64,000 nucleotides of DNA from Methanotrichaceae archaeon. Its GTDB lineage: Archaea; Halobacteriota; Methanosarcinia; Methanotrichales; Methanotrichaceae. Shown in pieces: positions 10,398-57,997 of this stretch. The stretch spans positions 224,001 to 288,000 of the forward strand of contig CAWDLW010000015.1 of NCBI GenBank assembly GCA_963803145.1. Direction: 5' to 3'. The notes beneath the pieces were generated by a model. The model was given only the letters and a program-made list of their open reading frames with translations, was not told the DNA's origin and did no database searches. A program made the position numbers and the translations under genes. Each line of letters starts with the position of its first letter. The stretch's first letter is position 1.

Positions 10398-11966
10398 ATG
10401 AGAAAACACAAATCCTTTTTGGCCTTATATGTTTTGATTATTTTAGCATGCGCAATGGGTGCTAACGTTCAAGCACAACCGACGACCAGAGTCGAAATCA
10501 GCGATAATTCTTTTCAGCCGGATATAATTTCTATCCCGGCAGGTACAACCGTGATTTGGACGAATGATGATACTACCGATCACACAGTAACCAGTGATGA
10601 CAGCGCATTCCATTCCGGATATATTGCTCCCGGCGGACATTACAGCCGTCTTTTTGACACTCCGGGGGACTATCCCTATCACTGCAATATTCACCCATTT
10701 ATGCGCTCTATGATTCATGTAGAGCCGAAGCCATCGTCTACATCGGCTAATACGCCGAATGCATATCAAAGCGCCGTTTCCACAGAGGCTACTCAGAACT
10801 CGGCCACGCAATACGCTCAATATCCTCAATACGCTCAGAACTATCAGACGAAGATGATTTCAGGAGCCTCATCATATACTCATATAACAAATCCCAAAGA
10901 ATATGATATCCAAAGCAATCCGCCCGCATATTTATATTTCCGCGATCAAGAACAGGCAGTGCCTTACAACCAGTATCAAACCTATGCCGAGCAGGAAGAA
11001 GGCAACTTCTTATGGGTTCAGGGAACCCCTAGCTGGAGCCAATATGCAACAGCTCCGGAAGGGACCTCAGTATCGCTCATTGCATCCACTCCTACAGGAG
11101 GCAATGGTTATCTGTATGAGACATATCCAGATGGCCATACGATCAAGAACTACTATTACTTCTTCCCATACAGCCAGTTAGGCATTAATTTAGATACAGT
11201 TGGTCAGCACAAACTGTTCTTCTCAAAAGACGATCAAATGAGCAACTCAATAGTTATCGATGTGACAGGATCGAATCAATTATCCAATGTGCAGCCAGAA
11301 TATCAGCAGCCGGGTAATCCTCAGCCAAGCTATGTACAGCAGAATTATCAGCAATCAAATTATCAGCAGTCGAATTACCAGCAGTCGACCTATAATTACG
11401 GATCTCAAGGTTATCAGCAGTCTGAAGGCCAGCAGGAAAGCTATAATCTCCAGCCGAAGCCTCAGGCAAAGGAGACACCTACCGAATATAGCTCATTCTT
11501 GGAAGAATCAATGGTGAGACAGGACAGCAATGGTCGGCTAACCAGCGATGGCATCCAGGGGACTGATTTCGATCTGCAGTCTTCAAATGAGAACATTCTT
11601 ACACGGGGGCTGCTCTATGGCGGCACCTCATACATTCTTGTTGCGAACCCGAATAGTGCTTCATATACGGTCACAGTGAATCCCGGGTTAAGCATCTGGA
11701 ATGTGCAGTGTGCCCAGGTCCAATATGGCAACTTGATGATTGCAAAGGCCAATAATTTGCTTCAAATAACAGTTCCGGCACACCAATCAGGCTTGATAAT
11801 CATCCAGCCGCAGAGAAAGAGATATTCCTTCTCAATCGGACCCAAGCCAGCTTATAGCATCAGTGTAGGACCGAAACCTGCATACAGCTTTAGTGCAGGA
11901 CCCAAACCAGCATATAGCTTTAGAGCTGGTCCAACGCCGCAATACAGTTTCAGAGCCGGATATTAG
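10398..11966 (+). CDS. Secreted cupredoxin (plastocyanin/azurin-like) multidomain protein
   Basis: Signal peptide; WTN..HTVT and YHCNIHPFM type-1 Cu ligands; YQQSN repeats; C-terminal decapeptide repeats. Confidence 0.85.
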   Translation: MRKHKSFLALYVLIILACAMGANVQAQPTTRVEISDNSFQPDIISIPAGTTVIWTNDDTTDHTVTSDDSAFHSGYIAPGGHYSRLFDTPGDYPYHCNIHPFMRSMIHVEPKPSSTSANTPNAYQSAVSTEATQNSATQYAQYPQYAQNYQTKMISGASSYTHITNPKEYDIQSNPPAYLYFRDQEQAVPYNQYQTYAEQEEGNFLWVQGTPSWSQYATAPEGTSVSLIASTPTGGNGYLYETYPDGHTIKNYYYFFPYSQLGINLDTVGQHKLFFSKDDQMSNSIVIDVTGSNQLSNVQPEYQQPGNPQPSYVQQNYQQSNYQQSNYQQSTYNYGSQGYQQSEGQQESYNLQPKPQAKETPTEYSSFLEESMVRQDSNGRLTSDGIQGTDFDLQSSNENILTRGLLYGGTSYILVANPNSASYTVTVNPGLSIWNVQCAQVQYGNLMIAKANNLLQITVPAHQSGLIIIQPQRKRYSFSIGPKPAYSISVGPKPAYSFSAGPKPAYSFRAGPTPQYSFRAGY

Positions 11967-14245: not shown

Positions 14246-15286
14246 CTATTGTTTTCTTCTTAGCCACAGCGTGTAAGGGTAAAAAATGACAGAAAGAACT
14301 TTATCCAGGATTCCTCTATTAGATGTATCACATTTTTCGCTATGCTCCTTTCCCCCAGGCGCTTCGCTTACCAACGATGGCGGCATTCGAGTCCCATCCG
14401 GCGCCTTACGCTCAAACGTGACAAACATAGCATCTTTTTTGGGAACCATTCTAGAGCCCATAGTGTTTGCATAAACCCTTGTAAATTCTGCACCTAATAA
14501 CAGTATATTTGCAGAGTAGAAGATCCAGAGCAGCAGGACCATAAGCGATCCAGCGACGCCATAGACGGACGCTATGGAGCTATAGCCTAAATAAAGACTC
14601 ACAAGATACTTGCCTATAGTAAAGAGTATCGATGTTGCGATTGCTCCGACCCAGCTATCCCTCCAAGAAATATCAATATCAGGGACAATCTTGAAGATCA
14701 CAGCGAAGATAAATGTTATCGCCAGAAATGAGACAATGAAGTTAGTAGTTTGCAGTTCTGTGTAACTTCTCATTATGCTTTCAAAGTGTGCATTCAAGAT
14801 AGCCAGACCTGTGCTTATAATCAACGAAATCAGCAGAAGAAAACCCAGCCCAAGAACCAGCAGGAATGAAAAAATACGATCGCGGACGATGCCTATGATG
14901 CCTCGACCCGACCTTGGCTTAACATCCCAGATAGTATTTAACGCATCCTGGAGTTGGCCGAAGATTCCAGTTGCCCCGACGATTAGAGCTGCAATACCAA
15001 TAATTGTTGCAAATGGACCTCCTCCTGATTTGCCTGCATTCTCTATTATGACCTGTATTGCCTGAGCGCTCTGCTCGCCGACAAGACCGCGGATCTGAGC
15101 GACTATATGCCCTTTGGCGGCCTCCTGGCCAAAGGCTATGCCCGCTATGCCTATTACTATCACAAGCAGTGGGGCAAGCGAGAATATGGTATAGTAGGCT
15201 AAGGCCGCAGCGAGCCTTAAGGCATTGTCTTCATTCCAATTTGAGAGCGTATCCCTAAACATTCTCAAGATCAGCTTCAGATCCAC
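14246..15286 (-). CDS. YihY/virulence factor BrkB family membrane protein
   Basis: AAALAYYTIFSLAPLL, YGVAGS..LLLWIFYS..ILLLGAE motifs. Confidence 0.9.
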   Translation of the reverse strand: MDLKLILRMFRDTLSNWNEDNALRLAAALAYYTIFSLAPLLVIVIGIAGIAFGQEAAKGHIVAQIRGLVGEQSAQAIQVIIENAGKSGGGPFATIIGIAALIVGATGIFGQLQDALNTIWDVKPRSGRGIIGIVRDRIFSFLLVLGLGFLLLISLIISTGLAILNAHFESIMRSYTELQTTNFIVSFLAITFIFAVIFKIVPDIDISWRDSWVGAIATSILFTIGKYLVSLYLGYSSIASVYGVAGSLMVLLLWIFYSANILLLGAEFTRVYANTMGSRMVPKKDAMFVTFERKAPDGTRMPPSLVSEAPGGKEHSEKCDTSNRGILDKVLSVIFYPYTLWLRRKQ

Positions 15287-15538
15287 GGTTAAACTCCTCT
15301 GTTAAATGCAGCAGGAAATGTTAGGACATGTTATATAATTTGCCGGGCCACTATAGGCCTCCCAGCTAGACCTCTTAAATAGAGAGGAATTTATGCTCAT
15401 ATGTCCAAATGGACCAAATCTCTATGGAAGGCTTCCAAGCCCGTAGTTTAAAATCAGAAGGGGAAAAGGATATATGGCGGCCCACTGCAGAGGATTTGCA
15501 AAGCAGGGCATATTGTCCAGGAATCGCCTTGCGGAGAC

Positions 15539-16807
15539 ATGCTTATAATGTCAGACCAATGTACGTGTCATAGTCACAATACACATCCATATGAGAGAAC
15601 TCAAGAAAACGATTTCTCTTTCAGCATCATCTGTGAAGAGGATGGAACTCGAGCTAGATCAGGAATAATAAAAACCAGGCACGGTAGCATAGAGACGCCT
15701 TATTTCGTGCCTGTCGCAACCCTGGCCTCAGTTCGCTCCCTTGGATCGGATGATTTGGATGCTCTCGGTGTGCAATGCACACTTGCAAATACATATCATC
15801 TTCACTTGAAGCCGGGAGATGAGGTTGTAAGAAGATTGGGCGGCTTACACAGGTTTATGGGGTTTGGCAGGCCCATCTTTTCAGATTCGGGCGGATTTCA
15901 AGCATTTTCTCTAGGATACGGAAGGGAACATAATTTAAATAAAATTGGAGGCGTATTTCCCAGAGGAAGAAACGCCGATGTGCCTAAGGAGAACCTGACA
16001 AAGATCACAGACGAAGGCATCTCTTTCAAATCCCTTTATGATGGAGCATGGCATTTCTTGAATGCGAAGAGATCCATGGAAATTCAGTCTAACTTAGGCT
16101 CGGATATAATAATGGCCTTCGATGAGTGTACTTCCCCGCTCTCGGACTATAGTTATACTAAAAAGGCAATGGAGCGAACCCATGAGTGGGCAAGATCCTC
16201 TCTGGAATACCACGATAATAGTCAGGCAATTTACGGCATAATTCAGGGCGGCTGGTTCGAGGATTTGAGGGCTGAGAGCACCGAGTTCATCAAGTCGCTT
16301 CCCTTCGACGGCATCGCCATCGGCGGCTCCTTAGGCAACTGCAAGAAGGATATGCATCAGGTTCTGGATTGGGTGATTCCAAAGCTTGACACCAGGCCAA
16401 GACATCTTCTTGGAATAGGCGAGATCGACGATGTCTTCGAGTGCATAGAGCGCGGGATAGATACCTTTGACTGTGTCTCGCCCACAAGGATTGCCAGGAG
16501 AGGAAGCCTGTATATATCCCCAGAATCAGGCGGATGCATTGAGAATAAGTTCAGGATAGATATAAAGGCCAATAGGCATAAAGAGGACTTGAAGCCCATA
16601 GATCCTGCGTGCAGATGTCCCACATGTCTCAGATACTCCAGAGCATATCTGAGGCACCTTTATGCTGCCAAAGAGCTGACTTACTTCCGATTGGCATCCA
16701 TTCATAATCTCTATTTCATGCTCAGGCTTATGGAGATGATAAGGGAGAGCATAAAGCAAGGCACATTTACTGAATTGAAGGATAAATGGCTGAATATAAA
16801 TGTCTGA
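15539..16807 (+). CDS. tgt: Bacterial-type tRNA-guanine(34) transglycosylase
   Basis: NTYHL, DSGGFQ, FDEC, GIIQGG, AIGGSLG, PRHLLG, FDCV.PTR.AR, Zn site CxCxxC..H; no PUA domain. Confidence 0.9.
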   Translation: MLIMSDQCTCHSHNTHPYERTQENDFSFSIICEEDGTRARSGIIKTRHGSIETPYFVPVATLASVRSLGSDDLDALGVQCTLANTYHLHLKPGDEVVRRLGGLHRFMGFGRPIFSDSGGFQAFSLGYGREHNLNKIGGVFPRGRNADVPKENLTKITDEGISFKSLYDGAWHFLNAKRSMEIQSNLGSDIIMAFDECTSPLSDYSYTKKAMERTHEWARSSLEYHDNSQAIYGIIQGGWFEDLRAESTEFIKSLPFDGIAIGGSLGNCKKDMHQVLDWVIPKLDTRPRHLLGIGEIDDVFECIERGIDTFDCVSPTRIARRGSLYISPESGGCIENKFRIDIKANRHKEDLKPIDPACRCPTCLRYSRAYLRHLYAAKELTYFRLASIHNLYFMLRLMEMIRESIKQGTFTELKDKWLNINV

Positions 16808-17609
16808 AAGGTTGAATCGTGAGGATAGTTCAGTTATGGTTGATGAGCCCAAATATAGCAGAGATGAGGCCTACAGCTTAAATGATAAGGTACACAAATT
16901 TCTATACAAATTTGAGCTGGATAAAACTCAAGTTACAATAATCATCTGCGGTCTCTACATATTCTTCTCCTTTGCGGGAAATATTGCAGCAACAAAGGTC
17001 ACATACTTCGGAAATTTTGTAATGGATGCGGGGTTCATTTACTCTCTCACATTCACCTGGAGGGATCTTATACATAAACAGCTGGGAAAGAAGGCTGCTG
17101 TTACTACTATATGGATGAGCGCTATAATAAATCTTATTGCAGCCCTTTACTTTCAGCTTGTGGTTCTCATGCCTGCGCAGTCCGGATGGGCCGATAAGGG
17201 AGGGCAAGCTGCATGGCAATTTCTCTTTGGCATAATTGATACCTCAGGCGGTGTATGGTGGCAGGCCATATTTTCACTCCAGCTTAGAATAGTCATAGGT
17301 TCGATAATAACTATGGTGATTGCAGAGCTTGTGGATACCCAGGTATATCATCAGTGGACCTCGGGAATAGGAAAGGATAAACCCGAGTGGACAAGGGTCT
17401 TCGTCTCCAATGCGTTCTCAATTCCAGTCGATAGCATTCTCTTCCCTTTGATAGCCTTCACAGGGATTGTCGGCGTAGACGCGATGATGCAGATGTTCGG
17501 CACAAATATAATCGTCAAGGTGATAACTACACTTCTGGCCTTCTGGACGATATACCTAGTGCCAGAGAAGCCTATCTATAGGGATGTGGCGAAATCAGTA
17601 GAGAGTTGA
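16800..17609 (+). CDS. yhhQ: Queuosine precursor transporter, VUT/YhhQ family
   Basis: NIAATKV..G.IY.LTF..RDL..K.LG motif, R..SN..S..VDS motif; overlaps tgt by 8 nt. Confidence 0.85.
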   Translation: MSERLNREDSSVMVDEPKYSRDEAYSLNDKVHKFLYKFELDKTQVTIIICGLYIFFSFAGNIAATKVTYFGNFVMDAGFIYSLTFTWRDLIHKQLGKKAAVTTIWMSAIINLIAALYFQLVVLMPAQSGWADKGGQAAWQFLFGIIDTSGGVWWQAIFSLQLRIVIGSIITMVIAELVDTQVYHQWTSGIGKDKPEWTRVFVSNAFSIPVDSILFPLIAFTGIVGVDAMMQMFGTNIIVKVITTLLAFWTIYLVPEKPIYRDVAKSVES

Positions 17610-49761: not shown

Positions 49762-50930
49762 GGTAGTCTACCTTAGATAAGTTGTTATATTATCAACTGC
49801 AATCATATAATTGGAGGAATACAATGATGAATGAACAATTGGTTCCTCCAAGCACGTTTTGCTGGAACCAAGAGTGTATCGACTATTGCAAAGTAAAAAA
49901 TGAAAACATCATAAAATTTGGCCGAACCGCCAAAGGAACACGCTATCGATGTAAGACCTGTGGGAAGACATTCGTTGAAAACATAGGTACAGTATTCTAT
50001 GGTCGCCATCATAGCCAGGATACAATTCTAAAATGCTTAGCCTTGCTGGCCGAACGCAATAGTCTGGCATCCATCCATCGGGTTATGGGGATTAAAGAAG
50101 AAACAGTTATGGATTGGCTTCACGAAGCAGCTAGCCACGTTGAAGAGCTAGAGGCTCTAATGCTTGCAAACTATAAACTGACTCGTGTTCAACTGGATGC
50201 TATGTGGTCATACGTAGGAAATAAAGGCGAAAAGGGGGCTATCCAGAAGAGAACGATCGTGGTAGCTTCTGGCGCGGTACAACGATAGATATGGATACTC
50301 GCCTTAGAGTTGGGCGGTCAATCAGGAAGAGTGAAAGCGAAGTCTCTATGGAATTGATGGCCCAGTTGAAGGCTCGTGGTAATCCGGATAAACCTCCTGC
50401 TATCGCTACTGATGGCTATGATAGTTATCCGGAGGCCATGCTCGAGACTTGGGGGAAAGTACCTGAATACTCTGGTAGAGGAAGACCGCCTACTCGAAAG
50501 AAGTCTGAGCCTGATTGGAAATGCATTCAGATAATCAAAACACGATCTGGAGGGCATCTTGTTAGTATCCACTACAAAGTTGTCTTTGGTGATACGAAAG
50601 GGGTCTGTGATCTAATGGGCACCCATACTGCCTATATCGAGAGGACTCATCTAACATCCAGACAGATGAATGGGCGATTTGTTAGAAAGACCATTTCTTT
50701 CTCTAAAGAGATCGAGATGCATAGGGCTTCTTGTGCCTGGGAAGATTGGGTTTATAATTTGGCCAGGCCTAATAAGTCATTACGAATCGATTCAGCAGAA
50801 TCTCAACGATGCTGGACGAAAAGATCTCCAGCTATGGCTGCAGGTTTGACTGATCATATTTGGACTATAAAAGAAATCCTTATGAATGTCGTGGTTCCAG
50901 ACGGGAGCAACATGAAATAGGTAGACTACC
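49762..50930 (+). mobile_element. IS1-family insertion sequence (1169 bp)
   Basis: 12-bp TIR GGTAGTCTACCT/AGGTAGACTACC; 8-bp TSD CTCTTTTG (49754-49761, 50931-50938). Confidence 0.93.
49824..50920 (+). CDS. IS1-family transposase via predicted -1 frameshift
   Basis: ORF-A zinc finger/HTH and QLDAMWSYVG; slippery A_AAG_GGG near 50231; ORF-B TDG, IER motifs. Confidence 0.85.
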
Positions 50931-50978: not shown

Positions 50979-52061
50979 TAGTTAATCTCCTAGCTTTTTG
51001 CACTAAGAAATCGCTCCACCCAGGACTTTGAATATCCATCCTTTTTGGAATAAAATATTTCTAAAGCGCAATCTTGGCTAGCTATAATAGCTTCATCGAA
51101 ATCAGTGTATTTGGCGATCTCTCTTTTGAAATCCTTCCAACCGAATTCTATAGGATTCAAATCTGGTGAATAGGGGATATTATAAATTAAGTGAATATCG
51201 ATTTCCTCAGCTAGTTTTCTAAATTTCTTGGCCAAATGAATTCTAGCATTATCTAAAAGTATACAAATTGGCCTCATAATATTATTATTTCTTATATTTT
51301 GAGCAAATGCCATCAACGCTTCCTTCTTAGAGGAGTTGGAAACCATAACCTCATCATTGCCATTTAATGCTATAAATCCAAAAATAGTTCTTGATCTAAC
51401 CTTTCCAGGTTTATAATTTATTAAATGAGTGTTTAAGACTCTACGTGTATTAGGGCGCTGTTGTAAAGAGCTTTCATCAAGAAATCCTATAACAGGATCA
51501 GTAACAGTGGTCAGCACTGATTTTATCCTTTTTTAAAAAACTTTCTGCATCTGCAGGCCTCTTTTCATTTCTGATGTATGGTTTCCCATACTTAACTTTT
51601 TTCACTACTCTTAAAATTCGCCAGCCATATTTATATGAAAAATCTATACCTCTTGTATCCCTTACATATTTTAATACGTCTTTTATCGTCATTCCTTTGT
51701 CTTCAATTTCTTTAATAACTCTATCCCATTCATCAAGAGACATCTTTGGCTTTTTGCCATTTCTATTCTTTGGTGTCAATCCATTATAGCCATGATTATT
51801 CCATCTGCTTAACCAATGTTTTATTGTCCTCTCGCCCCTTTTTAAAATATCAGCTACCTCATATACGTTTTTCCCTTCATATAAATGTATTATTGCCAAT
51901 AACCGTTCCTTAATCCTTAGATCAGTCTCTTTTTTATATAATTTATCAAGGTCTATCTTTGATATATGCCTAATTATTATAGGTTTTCTACCCATGCCTA
52001 TGTATTTTCACGCATTAATTATTAAATGTATCTATAGGGCAATAAGCTCAATGATTAACTA
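50979..52061 (-). mobile_element. IS630-family insertion sequence
   Basis: Ends TATAGTTAATC (50977) / GATTAACTATA (52063) with flanking TA duplication; low GC. Confidence 0.88.
50990..51995 (-). CDS. IS630 transposase via predicted -1 frameshift
   Basis: ORF-A HTH (51498-51995); T6A6 slippery tract near 51529-51540; ORF-B FLDES, LDNARIH, YSPDLNPIE DDE motifs. Confidence 0.87.
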
Positions 52062-56779: not shown

Positions 56780-57997
56780 ATGGATATACTTGCCGATGTC
56801 GGCGGAAGGCCGGGCCTAGATTGCAAAGGCTTCTGCAGCTACTGTTATTTCAGAGGTGTCAAGGACATAAAGCCCTTCGGGTGCAAATACTGCATGCCTT
56901 TTCAGAAGGGCTGCGATTATTGCTCTCGCGCCATAGTTGAGGGCTATCCAGGCTTCAAGCCACTGGATATGGTTGTATTCGAGGTTGCGCAGAAATGCAT
57001 CGGCACGGTTCCTGATAAAGTCACAATAAGCGGCGGAGGAGACCTTAGCTGCTATCCTCATCTGCTTCCTCTGGCGGAGATGGTTGGCCAGGGAATAGTG
57101 CCCATAAGCTTGGGCTATACAAGTGGAAAAGGCTTCACAAAAGGTGATGAGGCCAAGGCACTCATCGATGCTGGCGTAAAGGAAGTTTCATTCACGGTAT
57201 TCTCTACGAGTTCAGAGCTTCGGCGCAAATACATGGCGGATAAGCACCCGGAGGCCGCGCTTTCAAACCTCAGGCGGTTCTGCGAGAGCTGCGATGTCTA
57301 CTGCGCGTCTGTGCTCATTCCAGGAGTGAACGATGGCCCAGAGCTAGAGAAAACCTGCAGTGACCTAGAGGAGATGGGCGCAAAAGGCCATATATTAATG
57401 AGATTCGCCAACACTCGTGAGCAGGGTCTGATACTCGGAAATGCGCCTATCATTCCAGGGATTGTGCCACATACAGTCGAGGAGTTCAGGCAGATCGTAA
57501 CCAGGACGAGCGAAAGCCATAGCTTCCGAGTAACAGGCACACCCCTTTGGGACCCGGCTACCGGGGCTCCGTTTGCTCTAGCTACGCATAGAAGCGAGAT
57601 AAGCAGATTGCCAGCAGTAGAAAAAAGCGCCACTATTATCACAAGCTCAATCGCCCAGCCGCTCCTGTCCGTTATATTCGAAGAGCTCGGCGGAAAGGTG
57701 AATGTGGTAGCAGTGAACAAGGACATTGGCTGCCTGATGACCATCGATGACCTTCAAGGGATTGACCTAAATTGCGTGAAAGATACTGTCCTCGTTCCAG
57801 GCAGAGCATTAGCGCATGAGAGGGAGATAAAAAAGGCGCTGAACCGTGACGGGGAGGATAGACTCGTACTGCGAGGGCCCGATCGCCTTACGGTTGATGG
57901 AGAGATGAGCATATCCATGAACACTAGGCAAGTTCTCGATATTGAGATCGAGGCATTCAAGGAGCTTATAGAGGAGATCAACGCACTGGGAGTTTAA
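56780..57997 (+). CDS. mmp10: Methanogenesis marker protein 10, radical SAM MCR arginine methyltransferase
   Basis: DVGG.PG.DC.GFC.YCYF plus second CxxC..CxxC cluster; LMRFAN..QGLILGN; GPD.LT.DGEMS. Confidence 0.92.

Follow-up and report, generated by a model that had tools for sequence, protein, structure and literature searches.

A bacterial-type tRNA-guanine transglycosylase paired with a divergent QPTR-family transporter: a candidate queuine salvage operon in Methanotrichaceae and other archaea

Textbooks assign queuosine (Q) at position 34 of transfer RNA (tRNA) to bacteria and eukaryotes, and archaeosine at position 15 to archaea. The subject of this study is a pair of adjoining genes in a Methanotrichaceae archaeon (GenBank assembly GCA_963803145.1), one encoding a bacterial-type tRNA-guanine transglycosylase (TGT; protein Tgt, gene tgt) and the other a transporter of the YhhQ/QPTR family (Vut_1 in Pfam). 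Both lie on the 64,000-nucleotide stretch of contig CAWDLW010000015.1 (positions 224,001 to 288,000, forward strand) that we call the window, meaning the whole stretch that was analysed. Among the published systems closest to this pair, bacteria whose only gene of the pathway is tgt salvage queuine through a TGT and a QPTR (PMC11570991, PMC11130926), and the pocket motif GG[LS][AS]G is typical of queuine-salvaging TGTs (PMC11570991). Chlamydia has no QueA and is expected to salvage queuine. Its QPTR carries queuine only, and that of Escherichia coli carries preQ0 and preQ1 and not queuine (PMC11130926). In eukaryotic queuine enzymes Val takes the place of Cys158 (PMC5699537), and Val233Gly also sets these enzymes apart. 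Among archaea, COG1738 proteins probably salvage preQ0 (PMC5372724), and co-located TGT-QueA-QueH clusters have been described, "some Methanosarcinales" included (Castelle et al. 2021, PMC8204110).

Like the TGT and YhhQ/QPTR of Chlamydia trachomatis, the pair in the window joins a bacterial-type Tgt to a putative importer of the QPTR family, and QueA, QueF, QueG and QueH are likewise missing from its genome. Unlike C. trachomatis, its host is archaeal and has an archaeosine pathway as well; moreover, the two genes stand in one predicted operon, and the QPTR comes from a very divergent clade. The clusters of Castelle et al. (PMC8204110) likewise place a bacterial Q-pathway Tgt in archaea, but the window differs from them in its loop type (type II, defined below), its transporter and its lack of QueA. 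We read the pair as a two-gene salvage operon for a finished 7-deazaguanine base, most likely queuine, with a probability of about 0.6. An earlier sequence-only reading of this DNA had proposed a candidate queuine or queuosine salvage system, and the computational results support that proposal, none of them refuting it. Transport, activity on archaeal tRNA and the base used are what we infer, as follows. The QPTR/YhhQ-family membrane protein would import a free 7-deazaguanine base from neighbouring bacteria; Tgt would recognise the U33-G34-U35 anticodon loops of tRNA-Asp, tRNA-Asn, tRNA-His and tRNA-Tyr, taking G34 out and putting the imported base in; and the inserted base would undergo no further maturation and would most likely be queuine, giving Q34. 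That the inserted base would be the end product follows from the lack in the genome of QueA and QueG/QueH, which process tRNA-bound preQ1 further, and of QueF, which produces preQ1. For queuine itself as the inserted base we see roughly even odds, the remainder being split among preQ1, preQ0 and something else. The features concerned, in window coordinates, are these:

15539 to 16807, plus strand: tgt, bacterial-type tRNA-guanine(34) transglycosylase of 422 amino acids, the variant labelled "type II" here
16800 to 17609, plus strand: YhhQ/QPTR transporter gene of the Vut_1 family, 269 amino acids, in the divergent clade labelled "type B" here
16800 to 16807, plus strand: overlap of 8 nucleotides between the end of tgt and the beginning of the transporter gene, read from the raw sequence
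15287 to 15538, plus strand: intergenic region upstream of tgt, after a divergent BrkB/YihY-like gene, from the map of open reading frames (ORFs)

Family models place the window Tgt with the bacterial enzymes. Its sole Pfam domain is TGT (residues 38-419, 423 bits), with no PUA domain found by Pfam, and it passes the TIGR00430 equivalog model at 468.2 bits against a cut-off of 306.75. Two other identities were tried and rejected. With arcTGT (TgtA, which places preQ0 at position 15) the protein shares a superfamily, and its genome also encodes an arcTGT, but it reaches only 117.3 bits against the TgtA model TIGR00432 (cut-off 350) and lacks the C-terminal C1-C3/PUA domains; against the DpdA model NF041059 it reaches 30 bits, where the cut-off is 200. 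Among solved structures the best match was the Zymomonas mobilis TGT (304 bits), followed by the Thermotoga TGT (296 bits), with weaker matches to mammalian QTRT1 (~231 bits) and QTRT2 (76 bits) and to the Pyrococcus arcTGT (61 bits). The AlphaFold2 model, built from 131 sequences, had a predicted local distance difference test score (pLDDT) of 93 and a predicted template modelling score of 0.90. In Foldseek it superposed on the Z. mobilis TGT with a template modelling (TM) score of 0.93 by target length and 0.82 by query length and a root mean square deviation of 1.4 Å; a search of the ESM Atlas returned generic Tgt clusters only.

The residues expected of a working Tgt are in place. The motifs NTYHL (84-88), SDSGGFQ (115-121), AFDECT (193-198) and AIGGSLGNCKKDM (260-272) are followed in the C-terminal part by FDCVSPTR (310-317), CRCPTC (358-363) and IHN (388-390). 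Alignment to the Z. mobilis enzyme equates D116 with D102, D195 with D156, C197 with C158, Q236 with Q203, G262-G263 with G229-G230 and D311 with D280, and lays C358, C360, C363 and H389 on its zinc site. The window enzyme is thereby like the canonical Tgt of Z. mobilis and E. coli in family, fold, catalytic Asp pair, Asp156, Gln203, Gly229-Gly230, zinc site and Cys158. By homology, Asp311 would form the covalent ribosyl intermediate and Asp116 would serve as the base. D116, D311, D195, Q236 and G262-G263 are invariant in 17 of 17 aligned type II sequences, and the catalytic, base-binding and zinc residues are conserved in 121 of 121 close homologues, as is the C.C..C motif (121/121); FDECT, which holds the Cys158 equivalent, is found in 118 of the 121 by aligned columns and in all 121 by plain string search. 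At its N-terminus the protein carries a Cys/His-rich extension (MLIMSDQCTCHSHNTH..., residues 1-25, window 15539-15613) that is common to the closest homologues at 88% identity and is modelled at pLDDT <50, most family members beginning ~20 residues later.

What sets the window enzyme apart from canonical Tgt is the loop of the base pocket, an insertion of ~25 residues and the lack of a QueA partner. Against GGLAVGEGQDEM in Z. mobilis, the loop here is GGSLGNCKKDM, shorter by one residue and lacking a counterpart of Glu235, and it places Gly or Leu at the Val233 position, depending on where the gap is put. It does not match the canonical preQ1 loop GGL(A/S)VGE, reading GGSLGN rather than GGLAVGE, and it fits four of the five positions of the published pocket motif GG[LS][AS]G. 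The string GGSLG is found in 121 of 121 close homologues, with Asn as the next residue in 107. The insertion occupies residues ~126-151 (window 15914-15991) after DSGGFQ.FSLG, is absent from the Z. mobilis TGT, carries a Lys135 invariant in the 17 aligned type II proteins together with a G.G.E...KI..F pattern, and is modelled with moderate confidence (pLDDT 65-87); L265 and G266 are invariant in the same alignment. The sequence-only reading had described a bacterial-type TGT with bacterial motifs, a C-terminal zinc site, no PUA domain, a retained Cys158 and a GGSLG pocket in place of the preQ1-type loop, and the models, motif positions and alignments agree with that description throughout.

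We use "type II" as our own label for Tgt proteins with the short loop and the insertion. The two traits co-occur and mark a large subfamily, as judged from the 150 best representatives drawn from a library of 1.8 billion proteins; the canonical GG[LV][AS]VGE proteins in that set have no insertion. Named type II members include a Thermoplasmatales archaeon (51% identity), Bipolaricaulota, many Patescibacteria/Saccharibacteria, Solirubrobacterales, Rothia, a metagenome-assembled genome labelled Rickettsia, Paracaedibacteraceae, Bdellovibrionales and an Aenigmatarchaeota (DPANN) protein, and the named hosts are largely of reduced, host-dependent or predatory lifestyle. The closest non-archaeal relatives of the window Tgt are bacterial. 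A Euglena gracilis transcript (P0147, 632 amino acids) encodes a eukaryotic type II Tgt-like protein that clusters with the type II enzymes of bacteria labelled Paracaedibacteraceae and Rickettsia.

Our strongest argument comes from the relation between loop type and QueA. Among archaea of the phylum, QueA was found in 0 of 20 genomes with a type II loop (Archaeoglobaceae, the ANME-1 family of anaerobic methanotrophic archaea and one further family) and in 7 of 7 genomes with the canonical GGL[SC]IGE loop, where it adjoins tgt (Methanoperedens, ANME-2 and one further family). This split indicates that the type II enzymes insert a base that does not depend on QueA. No QueA was found either in a survey of 41 genomes, made up of the genome with the window, 24 others from its family and 16 from its class (0/41), hence in none of the 15 family genomes there that carry Tgt. 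At the named loci, which are mostly bacterial with one Thermoplasmatales archaeon, QueA is present in 10 of 12 genomes with the canonical loop and in 4 of 29 with the type II loop (none in 25/29), so that a type II enzyme does not by itself guarantee a route free of QueA. The canonical-loop Tgt proteins with adjoining QueA in Methanoperedens, ANME-2 and the further family also share the string LDDCP (loci L138, L140, L141, L145 and L147, in genomes G168, G374, G407, G178 and G485). They form a second, separate bacterial-type Q system predicted in archaea, which is probably that of Castelle et al. (2021).

The relation between loop and QueA also bears on the alternative that survives best, in which the transporter imports preQ1, Tgt inserts it, and preQ1-34 stays the final product for want of QueA. 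Salvage of this kind has been proposed for Bartonella, which has the canonical loop and no QueA, and for Pelagibacter (PMC11570991). The retained Cys158, seen as FDECT in nearly all of the 121 homologues, would suit it, and so would the four type II genomes in which QueA is present and no other Tgt is, which imply that preQ1 can be a substrate of a type II enzyme. Yet Bartonella and Pelagibacter keep the GGLAVG loop (PMC11570991), and the window enzyme does not. The Leu231, Ala232 and Glu235 elements read preQ1; the window enzyme has these elements replaced and its loop shortened by one residue. Together with the 0/20 against 7/7 split in archaea, these differences leave preQ1 salvage an unlikely explanation, if the foremost of the alternatives, and queuine salvage the preferred one.

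The transporter matches Vut_1 (PF02592) at 106.5 bits (cut-off 27.2) and TIGR00697, "queuosine precursor transporter", at 64.1 bits (cut-off 50.95), and it has at least five hydrophobic stretches. It thus shares its Pfam and TIGR families, both above cut-off, with E. coli YhhQ (COG1738/QPTR, importer of preQ0 and preQ1; PMC5372724), from which it differs in sitting on a long branch. Its ATG at 16800 lies within ...AATGTCTGA and the tgt stop is at 16805-16807, in agreement with the 8-nucleotide overlap of the TGT and VUT/YhhQ genes read earlier. An alternative in-frame ATG at 16836 (Met13) would leave a gap of ~29 nucleotides and no overlap; since the alignment of orthologues begins only at residue 13-38, translation may in fact start there. 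The two genes are co-directional and probably co-translated; the same overlap of tgt and Vut_1 is also found in three loci of the ANME-1 family (L139, L144 and L146).

Linkage to tgt is a regular feature of this transporter. In the 41-genome survey, Tgt scored above its cut-off in 15 genomes, all within the family; Vut_1 lies immediately 3' of tgt on the same strand in 13 of these 15 and is present in at least one copy in all 15; where Tgt is lacking, it occurs in 5 of the 10 genomes from the family and in 3 of the 16 from the class. The clade to which we give the label type B occurs in 12 genomes, directly downstream of tgt in 12 of 12, and none of the 41 genomes has it without Tgt. It is supported at 100 by the Shimodaira-Hasegawa-like approximate likelihood ratio test (SH-aLRT) with a stem length of 1.77, reaches just 22-48 bits in comparisons with the rest of the archaeal and bacterial Vut_1 set, and appears in named records only from Methanotrichaceae and in one ANME-1 record. 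A second clade of linked Vut_1, labelled type C, is present in three genomes and includes the Vut_1 adjoining the type II tgt of the Thermoplasmatales archaeon. Four genomes carry an extra, ordinary Vut_1 paralogue elsewhere in addition to the linked copy, which argues that the linked copy has a job of its own. In Archaeoglobaceae, counted without 15 further genomes that have no determined Tgt status, Vut_1 is present in 30 of 30 Tgt-bearing genomes, within 2.5 kb of tgt in 14 of the 30, and in 15 of 26 Tgt-less ones; in one further family it lies directly downstream of tgt. A phmmer search that used the window transporter as its single query sequence covered 80 named loci, of which the record titles make 78 bacterial and 2 archaeal; it found an adjacent Vut_1 at one, that of the Thermoplasmatales archaeon, and the tgt-Vut_1 operon is therefore not general to type II enzymes; Vut_1 occurs anywhere in the genome in 7 of 29 type II genomes.

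The rest of the genome was the place where the sequence-only reading had wished to see a separate tgtA and the full set of que genes looked for. An arcTGT-like ORF of ~530 amino acids is present on contig C8, beside a weaker TGT-domain ORF (46 bits) that we tentatively read as a candidate ArcS. These two ORFs are the other TGT-domain matches in the genome, and no QTRT2-like second subunit was found. The window system would thus resemble eukaryotic QTRT1/QTRT2 in its proposed substrate, salvaged queuine, and in its dependence on bacteria, and it differs from them in keeping Cys158, in having no QTRT2-like subunit and in matching QTRT1 less well than the Z. mobilis TGT. QueA, QueF and QueH were not found in the genome, and the best matches to QueG (71 and 45 bits) fall below the cut-off of 200. 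The window itself holds no que genes by an NCBIfam scan of 36 further ORFs and a Pfam scan of the 8 nearest ORFs, as had been read from the sequence earlier, the matches to QueC and QueD sitting on other contigs. A search for Qng1/DUF2419 gave no match, though its control gave none in any genome either. The four GUN tRNA genes are present, for Asp (GTC), His (GTG), Asn (GTT, with an intron) and Tyr (GTA, with an intron), and T33-G34-T35 was read in the tRNA-Asn, tRNA-Tyr and tRNA-Asp genes.

Because QueC and QueD are present, the genome appears to make preQ0 for archaeosine, and preQ0 is the base of the next alternative, in which preQ0, self-made or imported, is placed at the wobble position and might then be amidated. 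Archaeal QPTR homologues have been proposed for preQ0 salvage (PMC5372724), E. coli YhhQ carries preQ0 as well as preQ1 (PMC11130926), and the window's genome has a single Vut_1 gene, all of which would suit this account. A self-made base, however, needs no importer tightly coupled to tgt; four relatives retain an ordinary Vut_1 besides the tgt-linked copy; the type B copy is never seen without Tgt in the surveyed genomes; and the loop is unlike the Val-Val pair that the literature gives for the preQ0-specific arcTGT. We regard preQ0 at position 34 as a shade less probable than preQ1, and salvage of queuine as the better account of an importer bound so closely to tgt.

A different target, whether another tRNA position, another RNA, or DNA as with DpdA, for which the transporter would supply the base, seems improbable. 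The conserved type II insertion with its invariant Lys135, a segment modelled at lower confidence, would leave room for such a role, but the DpdA model gives the low score reported above, no dpd-like genes were found among the scanned neighbours, and outside the insertion and the N-terminal extension the fold superposes on the Z. mobilis TGT, with the zinc motif aligned.

The contig is archaeal. It carries mcrA 61 kb from the pair, and the window encodes RadA, replication factor A (RPA), an archaeal SMC and Mmp10, on which grounds the pair is not contamination. The Mmp10 gene (methyl-coenzyme M reductase arginine methyltransferase, window 56780-57994, 589 bits) confirms the methanogen context independently of mcrA. 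The weakest alternative, that the pair is an artefact or a relic (contamination, a chimeric contig or a decaying, functionless pair), can draw on a bin rated at 6.8% contamination (99.3% complete) and on the bacterial affinity of the nearest non-archaeal relatives, and the sequence-only reading had named contamination or chimerism as a danger, but it is already contradicted by these archaeal genes, by the synteny of the pair in relatives, by the presence of Tgt in 76 of 105 Methanotrichaceae species genomes, closed ones included, by two intact reading frames, by a ratio of nonsynonymous to synonymous substitution rates (dN/dS) of 0.14 for Tgt against its same-genus orthologue (the closest pair, the more distant ones being saturated), and by a guanine plus cytosine content of 0.445 that is ordinary for a window ranging from 0.387 to 0.495, and we reject it as very improbable.

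Several observations weigh against queuine salvage itself. The fourth loop residue, Leu, falls outside GG[LS][AS]G, the Glu235 equivalent is missing, and C197 preserves Cys158, whereas the eukaryotic queuine enzymes carry Val. Bacterial Tgt enzymes accept preQ0, and the genome probably makes preQ0 of its own. We know of no archaeal tRNA nucleoside survey, Archaeoglobus fulgidus included, that has reported Q. Three Solirubrobacterales and one alphaproteobacterium pair a type II Tgt with QueA and have no other Tgt; these genomes are G053, G057, G062 and G058 (loci L125-L128), and in G058 QueA and Vut_1 are adjacent. A genome of the same genus as the window's (G001) has neither gene of the pair, as expected of an accessory trait. 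Lastly, the substrate specificity of QPTR proteins is hard to predict from sequence (PMC11130926).

The pair is not special to this organism. Within Methanotrichaceae, Tgt is found in 11 of 16 genera, with one genus at 0 of 16 genomes, and in an even sample of the phylum it is found in 64 of 401 genomes, with Archaeoglobaceae at 37 of 64 and the ANME-1 family at 8 of 54. Named close homologues of both proteins are Methanotrichaceae, Methanothrix or Methanosaeta records, the Tgt of Archaeoglobus fulgidus already stands in the public record under an old accession, and public records label the pair "tRNA guanosine(34) transglycosylase Tgt" and "VUT family protein"; the pair is thus common in several archaeal families and already annotated by family name. 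The window pair is one instance of a conserved archaeal module of type II Tgt and predicted QPTR importer. What is new here is the loop-and-insertion subtype, its separation from QueA in archaea, the divergent transporter clade and the breadth of the module, which covers Methanotrichaceae, Archaeoglobaceae and ANME-1. Literature searches found nothing joining Methanothrix or Methanosaeta with queuosine and nothing on archaeal Q genes besides PMC8204110, although subscription papers and closed supplements may contain more. Of sixteen papers that mention Archaeoglobus and queuosine, none deals with Q in that genus, judged by title and abstract.

In a quick maximum likelihood tree of Tgt (LG+G4, SH-aLRT support only, arcTGT as outgroup), the archaeal type II sequences and six library proteins, one labelled "bacterium" and five without a usable name, formed one weakly supported group (support 89), within which the ANME-1 copies fell inside the Methanotrichaceae clade (support 96). 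The archaeal canonical enzymes formed a separate, well-supported clade within bacterial canonical Tgt. The two clades suggest that bacterial-type Tgt in archaea has two independent histories, with transfer conceivable in either direction. The nesting of the ANME-1 operons in Methanotrichaceae points to whole-operon transfer between orders or to mis-binned contigs. The tgt-Vut_1 operons of the ANME-1 family (f14; the three overlapping loci named above) are ~73-75% identical to that of the window.

The pair is flanked upstream by the divergent BrkB/YihY-like membrane protein gene and downstream by convergent genes for 2-oxoacid:ferredoxin oxidoreductase subunits. An Rfam scan of the whole window returned no RNA family at gathering score, and at E<=1 the region 15200-17000 showed no deazapurine riboswitch, with none upstream of tgt. 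Public sequencing runs that contain the stretch are DNA only, labelled sediment or soil metagenome, with no RNA run listed. Elsewhere in the window, a secreted cupredoxin-domain protein (10398-11966) has a long, low-complexity middle rich in Gln and Tyr and GPKPAYS-like repeats at its C-terminus, and short fragments of IS1-family and IS630-family transposases (49824-50285 and 51501-51995) lie between scpB and scpA/smc.

The split between loop type and QueA in archaea (7/7 against 0/20) makes these enzymes a convenient set for testing what determines the substrate of Tgt, still an unsettled matter. More broadly, several major archaeal lineages (Methanotrichaceae, Archaeoglobaceae, ANME-1, some Thermoplasmatota and some DPANN) may genuinely share, as a widespread trait, a salvaged 7-deazaguanine at the wobble position, queuosine or another, placed there by short-loop type II Tgt enzymes of a largely archaeal clade that work with QPTR importers of their own; we hold this wider reading tentatively, at somewhat less than even odds. 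If it is true, a sizeable part of Halobacteriota would break the textbook rule of archaeosine without Q in archaea, and, like eukaryotes, these archaea would rely on nearby bacteria for a micronutrient of translation. A salvage-type Tgt and its predicted importer are kept under purifying selection in an acetoclastic methanogen family that is globally important for methane production, and in several other archaeal families besides. If the genes work as their sequences suggest, the decoding of NAU and NAC codons would be tuned with a bacterially supplied base, and methanogenic and methanotrophic consortia would hold a new type of metabolic dependency.

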